Positions 1-39,438 are shown, counted from the first letter of the stretch. The stretch is 39,438 bases of DNA from Candidatus Bathyarchaeota archaeon (GCA_026967815.1 JAPUUO010000003.1:1-39438); one strand, 5' to 3'. Program-made: numbers and translations. The notes: generated from the letters alone by a model not told the origin.

Positions 1-36
1 AACCTATATTAATAAAATGCGGACGCGAACTTCTGC

Positions 37-221
37 CTTAAATTATTAATGCAACATGAAATGAAAAATGAATAAACATGTAAAGTAGTGGTTTATAATT
101 CTAGTAGATTGTTTCACAAGTTATTAATGTGCTCGACACTCAGAGTAGCGAAATACTTAGGAATGCTCCAGTATTGTGCTGGTTGTCTCTCTGAATGTGT
201 AAACTGGAAGGAGGTGAAAGA
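37..221 (+). promoter_or_regulatory. Conserved upstream module (promoter/leader), copy 1
   Basis: 37-75 matches the reverse complement of 39302-39340 at 35/39 nt; TTGTTTCACAAGTTATTAAT (109-128) is also shared; similarity continues to the GGAGGTGA SD at 210-217. Confidence 0.8.
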
Positions 222-707
222 GTGAGAAAAATACTAACAAGCATGGTTGCAACCTTGGTGATCCTCGGGGCGCTTTTCGCATTTTCGGGCGTCGCGACAG
301 CGGATAAGCCCACCGCCATAACCTTTGAATGGGTCCTCACGCAGAACACACAAGGACCGCTCATCAACGAAGGACCTTGGTCTGCTTCTGGTGTAGTTTC
401 CGACAGCGGTGATATGGTTCAGTACTTACATATGCGCCCGAACAAGCCTGCTCTCTCGGAGACCACTCTGACGAGTGATCTTGGAACCATCAGAATCTGC
501 AGCGTGGCACAAACCATAGCGGTCATTTCAGAAGATCCATTCATAGTCCGGATCGAAGGCATATGGTTCATCACAGGGGGAACCGGTGCCTACGCTCAGC
601 TTTCCGGTCATGGCACGGAGGTCGTTGAGGTGAACGTTGACCTCGCGATCCAAGGGCTGCCTTCTAACTTTGGGACCCAGACCGGCACCGCTCACTTACC
701 ACACTAG
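222..707 (+). CDS. Secreted hypothetical protein, possibly dirigent/allene-oxide-cyclase-like beta-barrel
   Basis: GTG at 222 follows GGAGGTGA, a better start than 195; signal peptide MRKILTSMVATLVILGALFAFSGVATA; motif WFITGGTGAYAQLSGHG. Confidence 0.75.
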   Translation: MRKILTSMVATLVILGALFAFSGVATADKPTAITFEWVLTQNTQGPLINEGPWSASGVVSDSGDMVQYLHMRPNKPALSETTLTSDLGTIRICSVAQTIAVISEDPFIVRIEGIWFITGGTGAYAQLSGHGTEVVEVNVDLAIQGLPSNFGTQTGTAHLPH

Positions 708-1226: not shown

Positions 1227-1254
1227 CTTAAATTATTAATGCAACTTCAAATGA
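1227..1254 (+). promoter_or_regulatory. Partial third copy of the conserved upstream module
   Basis: CTTAAATTATTAATGCAAC is identical to 37-55, followed by TTCAAATGA versus ATGAAATGA; ends 29 nt before the ATG at 1283. Confidence 0.7.
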
Positions 1255-1282
1255 CATATCAGTCAAATGAGAAGGGAGAGAT

Positions 1283-3434: not shown

Positions 3435-4619
3435 CTAAGTTGCTTTTATTCGAAGGACCCTGCTCAGTTCTTGTTCTAACTCTGAAGCTGGTGTTGTCGG
3501 CAAACTGATAAACGTCGTTTTTCCTCGATGTCCAAGACTGGAAGGTTGAGTTTCAATTATGTCCAAAGCCGAAAGCAGCTTGGCATATTTCCATAATTGC
3601 GTATGCTTGCGTTCTGTTTCGCCAAATTCTTCGCAAACAATGGCATAAGCTTCTTCGGCTTCGCCCATAGTAATATGGGCTGCGTCGGTTAGGTTGAAGC
3701 GTCTGGCGATTCCTAAGAGAAACAGTTTTTCATGCAATCCCAACTCGGTGATTGTGTCTTTTCGCACAACTGCATACACGCTGCTAGCGGCTTTGCGTAC
3801 ATGTTCAGGTAAAACTTCTTTGGATCTTTCGGTGTCAGCGTATTTGCCCGCTCTCCATAGCAACTCAATTGCATAACGGGCGTCGCCTCCCTCTAAAACT
3901 GCAGCTTCAGCAACGGCATCCTGAGTTTGAGATTGAACCGTGCCTTCTTTAAAGGCCCACGTTATTCGGTCGTTTAGGATGTCGCGAAGTTGAGGTTTCG
4001 AGTATTCGCTAAAATGTATAATGTTATGTTGAAGAGTGCTCCTTGTGCTTGCGTCGAGTTTGTCTAGGCGATGCATCTCCCGAAGGATGCCGATCAGCGA
4101 CAGCCTGTGAGCTGTTTTTACCCGTTCCTCCTGAACTCTTGTTAAACTGTATATGGGGTTTGACCCTTCGCTTTGAACAAGCGCTTCCAACTCATCTAAC
4201 GCCAATATGACATAGGCTTTTTTCTCGTCGAGAATCTGCATTAAAGCCTGTAGGAGCTCTTCAGCCGAATATCCTCTCTTCGGGAAGGTCGGATAAAATC
4301 TCAGAATAACCCGTTGAAGAATCATAAAGAAGCTTCCTTTGCATTCGCGGCAGTTGACGTGAACATAATGTAGGTTAACATTTCTCTGTTGAGCTTGCTT
4401 GGTTATGTTGGATCCAAAACTCTGGGAAATCACGGTTTTCCCAGTTCCGATTTTGCCGACAATGAGCACGCGTTGGGTCATTCTTCCCGGATTTTCAATT
4501 GTGAATCGGAAAAACTGGTTAAGGAGGTCTAATTGGGCTTTTCTGTGAGGTAAGCGTGGTGGCACATAGTTGATGTCTAGTTTGCTTTCGTCCTTGAAAA
4601 CGCTGAAATATGGAAGCAT
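3435..4619 (-). CDS. cdc6: ORC1/Cdc6-type DNA replication initiation protein
   Basis: N-terminal VFKDESKLDINYVPPRLPHR, Walker A GKIGTGKT, VNC, Walker B LALDE, GDAR sensor, C-terminal winged helix. Confidence 0.95.
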   Translation of the reverse strand: MLPYFSVFKDESKLDINYVPPRLPHRKAQLDLLNQFFRFTIENPGRMTQRVLIVGKIGTGKTVISQSFGSNITKQAQQRNVNLHYVHVNCRECKGSFFMILQRVILRFYPTFPKRGYSAEELLQALMQILDEKKAYVILALDELEALVQSEGSNPIYSLTRVQEERVKTAHRLSLIGILREMHRLDKLDASTRSTLQHNIIHFSEYSKPQLRDILNDRITWAFKEGTVQSQTQDAVAEAAVLEGGDARYAIELLWRAGKYADTERSKEVLPEHVRKAASSVYAVVRKDTITELGLHEKLFLLGIARRFNLTDAAHITMGEAEEAYAIVCEEFGETERKHTQLWKYAKLLSALDIIETQPSSLGHRGKTTFISLPTTPASELEQELSRVLRIKAT

Positions 4620-7322: not shown

Positions 7323-7503
7323 CGCGCAAAAAGCGATTTGAAACCGTTTTGAGACAAATTCTGAGACAATTTCCCATGGTTTTCCATCCGTCTTAGTGCG
7401 CGGTTCTCTAGAATCGTTTTGCGAAGTGCCTTCATACGTGTGGATGGTGAAAATGTTATAAAGGCTTGATGTTATTATGCAGATTCACTTTGGAGAGGAA
7501 GAT

Positions 7504-10500
7504 ATGAGGGTTCCCTTGCTTAGAAAAATCTGGGTGATCGGGATTGTAATTCTGTTTCTTGTTGCGAGCTGGACGGTGGTTCTTAGTCGCAATACGTCTG
7601 TCGTAGCTGCAGGGGCTACTATCTATGTTGATGCTGACAACGTCACCGGCCCGTGGGATGGAAGTCATGACTACCCTTATCAAAACCTCACCAGCGGGTT
7701 AGCCCATGCCTCTAACGGTGATACCGTTGTTGTCTTGGGTGGAACGTATAGTGAGAACGTTGTGGTGAACAAGAGCGTAACGTTGACAGGTGAGTCGAAG
7801 CCGGTTATTGATGGGATGAGCGGTCTCTACGGCTTGAATATCACCGTTAACAACGTTACTGTGCAAGGGTTCAACATAACGAATGCGGATTTTGGTATCT
7901 ACACGAACGCTTCGGGGTTCTCCATATTAGACAACGTCTTCTGGTATGACAATTACGGATTCTATTGGAATGTCTCCGAAAGCAGCCTTGCTGAGGATTA
8001 CACCCTCTATGCTAGCACGATCAAATACAACGAGTTTTACCTGAACACCGATAACGCGGCGGTATTTGTTTTTGTCACATTAAATTACAGCTCCAATGTC
8101 GGCTACGATGTTGATGTAGGGGATATTGCAATATGCAGCAATACGTTTTACATGGATGGAACAAGTGCGACCGGCATTGATGTTGAGTATTTCTATGTAG
8201 AAGCTCTTTATGGGGGAACGATTTCTTTCGGCGTCTTTAACATGTCTGGAAATACCATGTCTGGCGGAGCGTATGGCATTGATTTCTGGGGATACCTTGA
8301 AGATCTTCGAGATGTGCAAGCAAGCGTCGGTGATGTGATAATTACGAACAATGCGATGGTAAACCAGTCGTTCGGTGGCATGTACTTTGATTATTATGAT
8401 GGGGACTACTGGTATGGAAATACGGTAGGCACGTACGGAGACCTTGTAATAACGGACAATACGATAACGTCTGTGTATGACGCGGATGGCATCTACCTTT
8501 CAGACATTGGGTACTGGTATGACTTCTATGATTATGCTCGTCTTGAAGTTGGCGACGTGTACATTGAAGAAAATGAAATAGACGTTGGCGGAGACGGAAT
8601 CCATTTGTATGGCACTGAAGCTGGAAACTATTTGTACGACAATTCGTCCTTTACAATGGGGCACGTCCTTGTCAGAGACAACACAATCATCAGCGGCTGG
8701 TATGGAATATACATTGAATTCGAGTATTTTGGCTACGACATGAATGGTAGCTCTTCCTTCACGATGGGCAGCATCCTTGTAAACGACAACACCATCACCA
8801 GCACTGCCGATGGAATCTACGTAAAATACATGGAATATTTTGGAGAAGACATGACCGGCAACTCTTCCTTCACGATGGGTAGCCTCGAGTTCAGCCGCAA
8901 CACAATAGACAGCACCTACGAAGGAATCCATATCGACGACTTACTTGAATTCGGCAACTACATGTCCGACAATTCGTCCTTTGCGATGGGCAGCATCCTT
9001 GTAAACGACAACACCATCACCAGTGCTGCCGATGGAATACACCTGACCGGACCCTACTACTTGGGCTACGACATGAATGGAAAGTCCTCCTTCACCGTGG
9101 GCAACATCCAGTTCAACGGCAACAGCATCACCAGCGGCGGCGAGGGAATATACCTTTCTTACTTAGAGTACTACGGACAGGGCCTGCACGACTCATCCTC
9201 CTGGTTAATGGGCAACATCCAGTTCAACGACAACACCATCACCAGCGACGACTATGGAATGTACATCGGCTACATCGATACTTTTGGCGACGACATGACA
9301 GGTAACTCCACCTTCACGATGGGTAGCCTCGAGTTCAACGGTAACGTAATCAACAGCACCCTTGATGGAATGTACTTGTTCCAAATCTACTATTTCGGCT
9401 GGGTGTATGACAACGCATCTTTCACAATGGATCACTTCTCTGTAAATGACAACGTCGTTAACAGCGGCGATGATGCGATCCACCTTTATTACATGGAACC
9501 TTTTGGCACGCACGTCTACGACCACGCGTCTTTCACAATGGGTAACATCGAGTTTGACGGCAACCTAGCTAGCAACAGCGATGCTGGCATGAACTTGACG
9601 GATCTGGAAAATGCAATAGTCCGAAATAACATACTGCAAAACAGTTCCTACGGGATCTACCTGCAAAACTCAGGTAACAATTCTATTTACCATAACAACT
9701 TCATCAACAACACAGTTCAAGCCTACGTCACGGTGAACGACAACAGCACGTGGGACAACGGGTATCCGTCGGGGGGAAACTACTGGAGTGACTACAGTGG
9801 CGTCGACGAGTTTAGCGGTCCCGACCAGAATGAGCCCGGAAGCGATTTCCGAGGTGACACCCCCTACGCCATCAACGCCAACAACACCGACCGCTACCCC
9901 TTCATGATCCCCCGTGAAACGACTCCGCCCACCATTGTCCTCCTGTCTCCCGAGAACACGACTTACGCGCTAAGTACTGGCATCTCGCTGACTTTCACCC
10001 TCGATGAGCCGGCTGCATGGATCGGCTACAGCATCAACGGACAAGCCAACGTGACTCTCACGGGCAACGCCACGCTGCCGACCCTCCCGGACGGGTGGCA
10101 CCACGTGACCATCTATGCAAATGATACCTTCGGCAACATGGGAACGAACACCGTGTCCTTCACCGTGGACACCACGGCTCCAGCAGCCCACGCGGGTCCG
10201 GATCAAACCGTCGACGAAGATACCGCTATGACCTTCGACGGCTCCGCTTCAACCGACGACAACGGCATTGCCACGTACACCTGGACCTTCACGGACGGGA
10301 CGCCTCAAACCTTGAGCGGCGAGAATCCCATCCACACGTTTACTACACCTGGAACCTACACCGTGACCCTTGAGGCGACAGATCCCGCAGGTAACACTGC
10401 GACCGACACTGTCGTGATCACCGTGCTTGACGTCACTACACCGGTCGCCGATGCAGGAACAGACCAAACAGTGAATCAAGGAGCAAGTGTCGCTTTTGAC

Positions 10501-10782
10501 GGGGGCGGCTCAACGGATAACGTGGGCATCGCCAGCTATGCATGGGACTTCGGCGACGGAGCATCTGCGACCGGCAGAACGACGACTCATGAATACGCGA
10601 ACGCCGGCACCTACACGGTCACGTTAGCTGTTGAGGATGCGGCGGGCAATCAAGCGACTGACACCGCAGTGATCACCGTGAACCCGACCGAAGCTTTTCC
10701 AATGTGGGCTGTGGCGGCAGTTGGCATCGTAGCAGTGGGCATAGTCATCGCAGCAGTGATCTTCTGGAAAAGGCGAAAATAG
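7504..10782 (+). CDS. Cell-surface protein: signal peptide, NosD/pectin-lyase-like parallel beta-helix with 36-37 aa tandem repeats, Ig-like domain, 2 PKD domains, C-terminal TM anchor
   Basis: IYVDADN..GPWDGS..YPY; NNSIYHNNFINN; WDNGYPSGGNYWSDY; PKD motifs YTWTF/YAWDFGDG..GTYTVTL; ends in hydrophobic helix + WKRRK; alternative start 7477. Confidence 0.9.
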   Translation: MRVPLLRKIWVIGIVILFLVASWTVVLSRNTSVVAAGATIYVDADNVTGPWDGSHDYPYQNLTSGLAHASNGDTVVVLGGTYSENVVVNKSVTLTGESKPVIDGMSGLYGLNITVNNVTVQGFNITNADFGIYTNASGFSILDNVFWYDNYGFYWNVSESSLAEDYTLYASTIKYNEFYLNTDNAAVFVFVTLNYSSNVGYDVDVGDIAICSNTFYMDGTSATGIDVEYFYVEALYGGTISFGVFNMSGNTMSGGAYGIDFWGYLEDLRDVQASVGDVIITNNAMVNQSFGGMYFDYYDGDYWYGNTVGTYGDLVITDNTITSVYDADGIYLSDIGYWYDFYDYARLEVGDVYIEENEIDVGGDGIHLYGTEAGNYLYDNSSFTMGHVLVRDNTIISGWYGIYIEFEYFGYDMNGSSSFTMGSILVNDNTITSTADGIYVKYMEYFGEDMTGNSSFTMGSLEFSRNTIDSTYEGIHIDDLLEFGNYMSDNSSFAMGSILVNDNTITSAADGIHLTGPYYLGYDMNGKSSFTVGNIQFNGNSITSGGEGIYLSYLEYYGQGLHDSSSWLMGNIQFNDNTITSDDYGMYIGYIDTFGDDMTGNSTFTMGSLEFNGNVINSTLDGMYLFQIYYFGWVYDNASFTMDHFSVNDNVVNSGDDAIHLYYMEPFGTHVYDHASFTMGNIEFDGNLASNSDAGMNLTDLENAIVRNNILQNSSYGIYLQNSGNNSIYHNNFINNTVQAYVTVNDNSTWDNGYPSGGNYWSDYSGVDEFSGPDQNEPGSDFRGDTPYAINANNTDRYPFMIPRETTPPTIVLLSPENTTYALSTGISLTFTLDEPAAWIGYSINGQANVTLTGNATLPTLPDGWHHVTIYANDTFGNMGTNTVSFTVDTTAPAAHAGPDQTVDEDTAMTFDGSASTDDNGIATYTWTFTDGTPQTLSGENPIHTFTTPGTYTVTLEATDPAGNTATDTVVITVLDVTTPVADAGTDQTVNQGASVAFDGGGSTDNVGIASYAWDFGDGASATGRTTTHEYANAGTYTVTLAVEDAAGNQATDTAVITVNPTEAFPMWAVAAVGIVAVGIVIAAVIFWKRRK
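8600..9600 (+). repeat. Intragenic 108-111 bp tandem repeats (>=9 units)
   Basis: Equivalent codons at 8656, 8764, 8875, 8986, 9097, 9208, 9319, 9427, 9538; ATGGGCAGCATCCTTGTAAACGACAACACCATCACCAG is identical at 8764 and 8986. Confidence 0.9.
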
Positions 10783-38445: not shown

Positions 38446-38669
38446 TGTTCATGGTCTAAGAATAACTATGAGTATCGGGCTTTATTCTCGTACTGTGGAG
38501 ACATCACCCGCTTTCCCCCGCAAATCCCCCATTTTTGCATTTTCCTTTCTAGTGTTCGGCTTCATCTTGCCAGATATCAGCAAATATGTCTCCAAAAGAG
38601 GGGGGAGGTAAAAAGTTGTTTCGCCTTCACTTCTTCTTCATGGTTTCACTTCAGTCATAACGAAGCTCT

Positions 38670-39173
38670 CTATGCATCCCAGGCAGGACCAACGTTCACA
38701 AACCTTACATACGTTCCCTCTGGCCACATTGATGCCTCAGCCGCAGCATCTTCTGGAGTGTATCCCTCCATCATAAACAGAGCCACAAGAGCTTCATACG
38801 AAAAATAAAACCACTTGTTTTTAAGAGCCTCTAATGCGGTCTCGGGATCAAGCAACATCATCATCCACGCTTCCAATCCGGAAAGGGTAATCTCTTCGGC
38901 TTTGTTCATTAGGCCTTTAGCCCTTGACGCATCAAGGCCATGCATGAAGTCAATTGGCATCTCTTCGGTGTTGGCCATCCAAGTGTGAGTTCCTCCGTTG
39001 GGAAGAATCGCGTCCGCTCCCCCAGCCGTGGCGGGAGGGCCGGGGTCCGGAGGCACGATCTCCACATGTGGGTTTTTTTCCCCTGCTTTCTGGGGTCCGA
39101 TAGGTTTAGCCAGCACTGGGGTTATCATCAACAACACTAGAAGAGCCAAGACAGGTATCAAAACTTTCTTCAT
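38670..39173 (-). CDS. Secreted hypothetical protein
   Basis: Signal peptide MKKVLIPVLALLVLLMITPVLA; GGAGGTGA SD. Confidence 0.8.
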   Translation of the reverse strand: MKKVLIPVLALLVLLMITPVLAKPIGPQKAGEKNPHVEIVPPDPGPPATAGGADAILPNGGTHTWMANTEEMPIDFMHGLDASRAKGLMNKAEEITLSGLEAWMMMLLDPETALEALKNKWFYFSYEALVALFMMEGYTPEDAAAEASMWPEGTYVRFVNVGPAWDA

Positions 39174-39340
39174 TTCATTATCACCTCCTCCTAGTAAACA
39201 AATTTAAGGAATCACCAGAACAATGTTGGAAACAATTATAGGTATTATAACGCTTTGAATGTTAGCCCTATTAATAACTTGTGAAACAACTCTATAGAAA
39301 CTTATTCACATTTCATTTCATGTTGCATTAAAGATTTAAG
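39174..39340 (-). promoter_or_regulatory. Conserved upstream module (promoter/leader), copy 2
   Basis: Reverse complement aligns with 37-221 over both conserved blocks and the leader down to the SD. Confidence 0.8.
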
Positions 39341-39438
39341 GAGAAATGCTTACATTAATAAACTGATGAAGGCAAGGCATCAGCTTGCTTGATATTTGCA
39401 TTCCTGCTCTAACTTCTCGAGTGTAAGCTGACAGGCAA

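Follow-up and report, generated by a model that had tools for sequence, protein, structure and literature searches.

Among archaeal operators, several lie between the TATA box and the transcription start site, including the NrpR nif operator, the Phr heat-shock operator and the TGM of Thermococcales. Archaeal activator sites, such as those of Ptr2 and the ara-box, are found upstream. Bathyarchaeia are among the most abundant archaea of sediments, and almost nothing is in print on the control of their transcription. We searched the full-text literature, with subscription journals outside the scope, for descriptions of Bathyarchaeia promoters or for the sequence of the module reported here, and found nothing relevant.

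Putative mobile promoters were described by Nijveen, Matus-Garcia and van Passel, with at least 80% identity over at least 50 nt as the criterion (PMC3575422). Their survey describes mostly pairs, and the mechanism of mobility is unknown (PMC3575422). As for the erp genes of Borrelia, the accessible part of one account states that they go back to a single promoter/leader/localisation sequence and to many sequences of diverse kind (PMC10016077).

The window analysed here is the whole contig C110, of 39,438 nt, of the Bathyarchaeota MAG G000 (1.35 Mb, 111 contigs, 72% complete, 44% G+C). Near both ends it carries a module composed of a long conserved box (block 1), a second box (block 2) and a leader, in front of two genes that we call A and B. 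Block 1 alone is found in front of a third, gene C. We read the module as tandem specialised promoters with a putative common regulator, reused in cassette-like accessory units, and give this reading, made from sequence comparison, a probability of about 0.6. The module is very unlikely to be an integron, and it is neither a known RNA family nor a gene duplication.

Block 1 resembles the archaeal operators in having a TATA box with a conserved stretch up to the start site (here a predicted one), and in being a site common to a set of genes. It differs in being far longer (~30-46 nt), near-invariant and not a dyad, in lacking a purine-rich BRE, and in that its genes have no common pathway. Block 2 and the box AGAACnTTTCTC, often found upstream of block 1, are closer to the archaeal activator sites, as dyad-like boxes a few bases upstream of a TATA box.

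The mobile promoters are alike in that closely similar upstream sequences precede unrelated coding sequences, both within one genome and across genera (PMC3575422). The pair in the window falls below their threshold, with 68% identity over 160 nt, its two blocks measuring 39 and 20 nt. That level of similarity is seen in 13 pairs among 63 segments, eight of them within the related genome G001 and before unrelated genes. A further difference is that we find families of up to 32 copies together with a matching 3' motif, where the survey has mostly pairs. The “upstream homology box” of the erp genes is an analogy only: in the accessible part of that account, a conserved promoter/operator, leader and first residues are joined to diverse exported proteins (PMC10016077). 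The erp genes are bacterial, are carried by cp32 prophages in allelic position, code for lipoproteins and are controlled by the regulators BpaB, BpuR and EbfC, whereas the genes behind our module are archaeal, chromosomal and dispersed.

The window and its assembly

In terms of gene content the window is ordinary chromosome, with genes for Orc1/Cdc6, succinyl-CoA ligase, Alba and a class II (Asp/Lys/Asn-type) tRNA synthetase. The Orc1/Cdc6 gene (3435-4619, minus strand) contains Cdc6 lid and winged-helix domains, and a replication origin may be near. A surface protein of 1101 aa with beta-helix/NosD and PKD domains is encoded at 7477-10782 (plus strand). Five tandem DNA repeats of 111 nt within its gene (8616-9371, 63-73% identity) code for turns of the beta-helix.

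An earlier reading of this DNA, made without database searches (the sequence-only reading), had suspected that the repeat breaks the assembly, and the raw data bear this out. Contigs built at k=31 from three DNA runs are interrupted at block 1, at 37-66 and at 1227-1256. Depth at block-1 sites in the three runs climbs to 112-1437 from ~5-48, and loose contig ends ahead of 1227 read …AGAACATTTCTC. Two of six G000 copies of block 1 are found at most 100 nt from a contig end. Block 1 accounts for contig breaks when such genomes are assembled.

Anatomy of the shared upstream module

The two long copies of the module, at 37-221 (plus strand) and 39174-39340 (minus strand), align end to end (MAFFT, 20-235(+) against 39160-39360(-)). 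A genome-wide blastn search with 37-221 recovers 39181-39340(-) at 68% identity over query positions 1-181, with an E-value of 2.8e-9. Block 1 is identical at 35 of 39 positions (37-75 against 39340-39302) and block 2, TTGTTTCACAAGTTATTAAT, at all 20 (109-128 against 39289-39270), with 21 additional nt between the blocks in copy 1. The sequence-only reading had proposed this homology, with 35/39 and 20/20 identities and about 20 extra nt, and our alignment and recount agree with it. Its tandem TATA-like boxes are also confirmed, as two TATA-type boxes are stacked in the module.

In copy 1, block 1 (37-66, plus strand) starts with the TATA box CTTAAAT and continues with an invariant stretch up to a predicted start site at ~67-72. 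A degenerate version of the AGAACnTTTCTC box, GCGAACTTCTGC, is found upstream at 25-36, and the extension AATGAATAA, common to the long-form copies, follows at 67-75. Block 2 (99-128) contains TTCTAGTAGA and then TTGTTTCACAAGTTATTAAT, laid out as a TAGAA-N5-TTTCA box, 5 nt, and the TATA-like box TTATTAAT. The leader of gene A (129-221) contains the conserved CTCAGAGT at 139-146, the box TCCAGTATTGTGCTGGTT at 167-184 and the Shine-Dalgarno site GGAAGGAGGTGA at 206-217. Gene A (222-707) has a GTG start and codes for a secreted protein of 161 aa.

Copy 2 has the same order on the minus strand. Its block 1 (39311-39340) is preceded by the upstream box ...GCATTTCTC at 39341-39349 and followed by block 2 (39270-39300; TTTCTATAGAG, then TTGTTTCACAAGTTATTAAT). 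The leader of gene B (39174-39269) has the box TCCAACATTGTTCTGGTG at 39213-39230 and the Shine-Dalgarno site GGAGGAGGTGA at 39181-39191. Gene B (38670-39173) codes for a secreted protein of 167 aa.

The third copy is a short form, rightly noticed in the sequence-only reading as a truncated copy before a membrane-protein gene. Its block 1 (1227-1256, plus strand), with a (GT)5 tract at 1216-1226 replacing the upstream box, ends 26 nt ahead of the ATG of gene C (1283-1594), a membrane protein of 103 aa. One metatranscriptome run (X20) gave a single contig of 151 nt on 1377-1527, inside gene C.

Tracts in which purines and pyrimidines alternate, 8-12 nt of (GT)n or (GC)n, abut promoter boxes on their upstream side at 1216-1226 and 841-851 (GTGCGCGCGCG) of the window, and further tracts were seen next to promoter boxes at the loci L101, L020, L081 and L098. 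A repeat search reported no local inverted repeat within 37-130, and on this ground the pairing of block 1 and block 2 as one hairpin was dropped.

Block 1 across related genomes

With 37-221 as query, the first ~30 nt are matched many times in relatives. This portion is block 1, CTTAAATTATTAATGCAACTTGAAATGAAA. A 30-mer pattern with four free positions and up to three mismatches has 31 matches in G001, 12 in G013 and six in G000, and the reversed pattern, used as control, has 0 in each, which places block 1 beyond chance. The 19-mer core, counted in 60 genomes of the family, is most abundant in G001 (32 copies), followed by G424 (26), G013 (18), G002 (13), G003 (12), G022 (10), G004 (9), G000 (8) and G024 (5). 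In genus g20, with 25 genomes, the counts do not exceed those of the control, and genomes with at least four copies belong to the genera g1, g8, g10, g19, g2 and g16. In a class-wide sample, eight of 401 genomes have a block-1 match, mostly genomes of this family.

The idea of a portable module, put forward in the sequence-only reading, is upheld. Many copies exist beyond those of the window, and whole or partial copies stand ahead of non-homologous genes both in G000 and in its relatives. Neither outcome that this reading had named as refuting it came about, as copies are many and A and B are not diverged paralogues. In G004, a genome of a single contig (C1), all nine core matches are found on the forward strand.

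In a logo of 62 distinct copies, conserved positions extend from about -14 to +2 around CTTAAATTATTAATGCAACTTGAAATGAAA and no further; the logo overstates conservation, since the copies were picked at up to 5 mismatches. The AGAACnTTTCTC box is directly upstream of the TATA box in 31 of the 62 copies. Eight copies have a (GT/GC) tract of 10 nt or more in its place, and more copies have GTGTGTGC. At L060 (1545-1720, plus strand) and L015, an ORF of ~50 aa (…KEWKCVQLGHHKRVAETIEEYPKEDWRLHTYQATGQGTLITHYLLFEKG) is divergent to block 1 and adjoins its upstream box. This ORF is part of a dispersed repeat, present on several contigs in G000, G002, G003 and G004.

As for the genes found behind block 1, a Pfam family was assigned to 17 of 54 downstream ORFs of relatives, and the other 37 have none. 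The families comprise two SAM methyltransferases, two GNATs, two DUF3795, APH, glycosyltransferase 1, ABM, NIPSNAP, DUF6614, a luciferase-like monooxygenase, dockerin with CARDB, CBM96 and an extensin-like family. A hydrophobic N-terminal segment is present in 26 of 57 block-1 ORFs, against 72 of 566 control ORFs of G000 (up to 270 aa). Block 1 is not specific to secreted proteins. The sequence-only reading had the module driving a repertoire of exported proteins; the long form does precede exported proteins, but block 1 is found also before many other genes and before non-coding stretches.

At six of 63 copies, no ORF of at least 45 aa starts within 300 nt behind block 1. Three of these six (in G000 C17, G017 and G001) precede a conserved non-coding stretch of ~115 nt, which is a candidate small RNA with no Rfam match. 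The stretch (G000 C17:804-918(-), also L003; L016:1387-1501(-); L071:362-476(-)) has a T-rich run at its end, two CCUCC stretches and a consensus fold of -23 kcal/mol. Over the three sequences, 0 compensatory changes were seen in the 36 predicted pairs. L016 (G017, genus g14) and L071 (G001, genus g1) are near-identical for ~300 nt behind block 1 in spite of belonging to different genera, possibly through recent transfer or a binning error.

Block 1 as a putative promoter

TATA-type 6-mers have the highest enrichment 20-90 nt upstream of 738 crude gene calls of G000 (TTAAAT 3.7-fold, CTTAAA 2.7-fold). In the tRNA promoters of the same genome, a CTTAATA-type box, placed 33-38 nt ahead of the tRNA, is combined with an A-rich BRE. 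From both we conclude that block 1 opens with the ordinary TATA box of this genome. The rest of block 1 is absent from the tRNA promoters, and upstream of the 738 gene calls no enrichment was found for TTTCTC, TAGAAC, TTAATG or GCAACT. The remaining 22 nt of block 1 would reach the expected transcription start.

The orientation of the copies to genes was also compared. For ORFs of at least 100 aa, 23 of 56 copies have a same-strand start no more than 100 nt downstream; the mirrored test gives six of 56. Several ORFs start 2-13 nt past block 1 with no Shine-Dalgarno site, as in leaderless genes. Furthermore, block 1 is retained at orthologous loci across genera. The orthologues of gene B in G004 and G424 keep the boxes, and the non-coding locus of C17 keeps block 1 in G000, G001 and G017, with a different upstream flank.

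We propose that block 1 may be a lineage-specific extended core promoter, in which the usual TATA box CTTAAAT is joined to the almost invariant 22 nt. In half of the copies, the AGAACnTTTCTC box sits where a purine-rich BRE normally lies. One putative DNA-binding factor would read the stretch, and it could be a repressor that occupies the interval from TATA box to start site, or else a dedicated initiation factor. In an operator model, the putative specific binder would cover the GCAACTTGAAATGAAA stretch. The small accessory genes behind block 1, many of which code for membrane or secreted proteins, would then be co-regulated as one set. Block 2 would serve as a proximal promoter box, giving a leader of ~70 nt with the TCCAGCATTGTGCTGG box and a strong Shine-Dalgarno site. 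With two promoter-like units stacked in front of them, genes A and B would get two regulatory inputs.

Some features sit less easily with a promoter. Directly upstream of the TATA box of block 1 there is no purine-rich BRE, and pyrimidine-rich TTTCTC is found there, unlike in the tRNA promoters. Some orthologues have no block 1, namely the gene A orthologue L101 and the methyltransferase genes on the G000 contigs C36 and C54. A run of ~30 near-invariant consecutive bases exceeds the usual site of a factor and fits copying as well as constraint. As a candidate reader of block 1, a TFB paralogue was dropped, since the TFIIB-domain counts do not follow copy number: G013 has four matches with 18 copies, and g20 genomes have 4-15 with no copies above control.

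Block 2 and the leader

The 20-mer pattern of block 2 has ~40 matches in the 60 genomes, against ~22 for the control. Matches are clearly above control in G000 (4 against 0), G003 (5 against 0), G004 (3 against 0) and G019 (4 against 1). Among 31 distinct matches, 16 have an ORF with a Shine-Dalgarno site within 200 nt downstream, and 15 of these 16 ORFs have a hydrophobic N-terminus (background 72/566). We read block 2 as a second, putatively proximal promoter box that is characteristic of the family's secreted-protein genes. A sister form in G001 (…CCTTCCATAAGTCATAAAAACTG) follows block 1 ahead of ABM, methyltransferase, GNAT and DUF3795 genes, so this type of box is not strictly bound to export. 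One dockerin/CARDB gene is found behind a block 1 copy and not behind a block 2 copy.

Block 2 and the leader (CTCAGAGT, TCCAGCATTGTGCTGG, GGAAGGAGGTGA and an MRK start) precede gene A, its metagenome orthologue L101, and gene B with its orthologues. The same is seen for L013p (G001), L158p (G438) and L121p (G439). No significant pairwise similarity was found among A, B, L013p, L158p and L121p. Across three genera, block 2 with its ~70-nt leader is present before no fewer than five secreted proteins that are unrelated to one another. Comparison of the gene A locus with the G001:C86 unit, which has the most similar leader, revealed no synteny beyond the module (tblastx). L101 and L121 have block 2 and leader with block 1 absent, so the parts of the module are separable.

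Three details of the sequence-only reading have to be revised. Where it described one module of ~185 bp, we find three separable parts, with block 2 and leader but no block 1 in the metagenome orthologue of gene A. Its TGAAA/TTTCA operator half-sites find no support, as most copies consist of block 1 alone and the TTTCA partner is absent from them. Lastly, the leader that it put at ~90 nt would measure ~150 nt if counted from the first box and ~70 nt if counted from block 2.

The 3' motif and turnover of units

A second conserved motif, GAATATCAAGCAAGATGAAGTAAACA, newly described here, is found behind many block-1 genes. Of the 63 block-1 copies, 18 have the motif downstream and 10 have it upstream, in both cases on their own strand, and one has it on the opposite strand. 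Its genome counts track block 1, with 22 in G001, 18 in G424, 12 in G013, three in G004 and 0 in G023, and 0 in the controls. In G001, 11 of the 22 motifs follow a block 1 of their own contig and strand at a distance of 0.25-2.1 kb.

The core pattern of this motif has two matches in the window, both on the minus strand, for a chance expectation of 0.01. The first (38560-38577, variant ATATCTGGCAAGATGAAG) is found 92 nt past the stop codon of gene B, at the end of the B unit. The second (39378-39395, variant ATATCAAGCAAGCTGATG) is 38 nt upstream of block 1 copy 2, and presumably marks the end of another unit beyond the contig end.

A conserved micro-ORF of 14-21 codons, for example MIATLPAVIVYRRI or MLTTLLAVKVYRRRYISSKMK followed by a stop codon, precedes the 3' motif at L048, L059, L068, L043 and L022. 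Its copies differ in a synonymous fashion, as judged by eye, and the window has no clear copy. This micro-ORF could encode a tiny hydrophobic peptide, or it could be the decayed remnant of a membrane anchor once at the C-terminus of a protein.

Two candidate roles for these sequences were rejected. Taken as direct repeats or as an att core, block 1 and the 3' motif match at 13/20, a value reached in 239 of 2000 shuffles. An attC-like folding of the 3' regions was discarded with z-scores of -1.63 to +0.61 for eight regions folded as single-stranded DNA.

Units are gained or lost between congeneric species. Two block-1 units carried by contig C67 of G001 have no counterpart on contig C97 of G000, which is syntenic with it. 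A methyltransferase orthologue is found elsewhere in G000, with no recognisable block 1 or 3' motif. At the start of the window, positions 1-62 are ~93% identical to a G004 locus adjoining a tRNA gene, and the homology ends inside block 1. Behind this break comes a membrane protein of 68 aa in G004, whereas block 2, leader and gene A follow in G000. At L086:4020-4110 (G004), a tRNA-like sequence (T-arm GGGATTTGAACCC, by eye) lies ~300 nt upstream of three block-1 units. The orthologue of gene B is one of these three units, and the layout resembles an island beside a tRNA gene.

Alternative explanations

This turnover bears on the alternative that survives best, a propagated promoter cassette, in which block 1 would be uniform mainly through copying, by recombination or other mobility, together with small genes and the 3' motif, and not through a regulator constraining each of its bases. 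Block 1 would be a gene-swap junction. The alternative overlaps with the promoter reading and is compatible with it. We regard it as possible and hold it tentatively. Copying is suggested by the 3' motif, which follows 18 of the 63 block-1 copies, tracks block 1 in copy number and, in 11 of 22 cases in G001, lies 0.25-2.1 kb behind it. It is also suggested by the absence of both C67 units from the C97 backbone, by the ~93% identity to G004 that stops within block 1 with other genes beyond, by the eight G001 pairs at or above 80% over at least 50 nt before unrelated genes, and by gene A, present in none of 59 other family genomes.

However, no recombinase was found among the 35 other window ORFs scanned and no hairpin in eight 3' regions, and terminal inverted repeats and target duplications were not found either. 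The indels between C67 and C97 exceed the size of the units and end off the motifs, and the likeness of block 1 to the 3' motif is not significant. A single breakpoint inside block 1 is documented, and the conservation of block 1 at orthologous loci across genera needs selection. It is a minority possibility that small accessory genes are packed as self-contained cassettes, with block 1 at the 5' side and the 3' motif behind, and swapped by recombination within block 1. If true, this would be an archaeal gene-shuffling platform without an integrase, in which captured genes come pre-wired into one regulatory circuit.

Improbable on present evidence is an element at the RNA level, with block 1 and/or the leader transcribed and acting as a 5'-UTR regulatory RNA (riboswitch-like, protein-binding or sRNA-binding) in place of a DNA promoter. 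The leader box CCAGCATTGTGCTGG can make a hairpin of 5 bp with the loop ATTGT, and in the G004 orthologue of gene B the same place has CTATCATTGTGAATAG, with changed stem bases and the same loop (by eye). Over six aligned leaders, however, the stem changes are mismatches (CCAAC...GCTGG) and not compensatory pairs. Rfam 15 at gathering threshold gives only tRNAs, with three matches in the window and none in L003 or L016. The leader box is rare, with five matches at up to two mismatches in 60 genomes, and the ~70 matches at three mismatches (control ~25) are mostly noise. Furthermore, no promoter-like conserved sequence is found upstream of block 1, where the logo is at zero, and in many copies the start codon is 2-30 nt behind block 1.

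It is very unlikely that block 1 or the 3' motif are attC-like sites or element ends of an integron or transposon. Integron cassettes, archaeal ones included, are alike in having small and mostly uncharacterised accessory genes, short units and conserved borders, according to the accessible part of their description (10.1101/2022.02.06.479319). The gene content behind block 1 is cassette-like (small genes, GNAT, methyltransferase, APH, DUF3795, with 37 of 54 ORFs lacking a Pfam family), and the units are partly in same-strand runs. Unlike integrons, the eight 3' regions contain no attC-type hairpin (z -1.63 to +0.61), and block 1 does not repeat the 3' motif in inverted or in direct orientation. 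A domain scan of the 35 other ORFs of the window found no integrase family, and every unit has its own promoter-like box, against promoterless cassettes.

Proteins A and B

Genes A and B were said in the sequence-only reading to share only a signal peptide, and every comparison made here agrees. The best BLASTP E-value between the proteins is 1.1, hhalign gives a probability of 1.7% (family alignments of 7 and 15 sequences), and neither protein has a Pfam family. The AlphaFold2 model of A is all-beta (pLDDT 60.6) and that of B is alpha+beta (pLDDT 71.7). A Foldseek search of the A model against PDB found nothing at E 0.001 or better; its best rows are weak, with TM ~0.4 for a model of pLDDT 60.6, and belong to barrel types (dirigent, allene oxide cyclase, PodA-like). 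In the 59 other genomes of the family, gene A is found in none and gene B in six.

Plain gene duplication, with A and B as diverged paralogues retaining their upstream region, is rejected on the BLASTP and profile comparisons and on the unlike predicted folds, despite both being secreted proteins of ~165 aa with alike signal peptides and MRK/MKK starts, and the same module is present ahead of three more unrelated proteins (L013p, L158p, L121p).

Significance

A putative promoter element of 30-46 nt, with up to 32 copies in a genome, gives a concrete handle on transcription in Bathyarchaeia. The genes behind block 1, for small membrane, secreted and modifying proteins, make up a candidate regulon. 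Block 1 can be used as bait for the putative regulator, and the predicted start sites can be checked with metatranscriptomes. Finally, the paired 5' and 3' motifs, together with the turnover of units between species, suggest a form of accessory-gene capture and expression in archaea without the known machinery of mobile elements.
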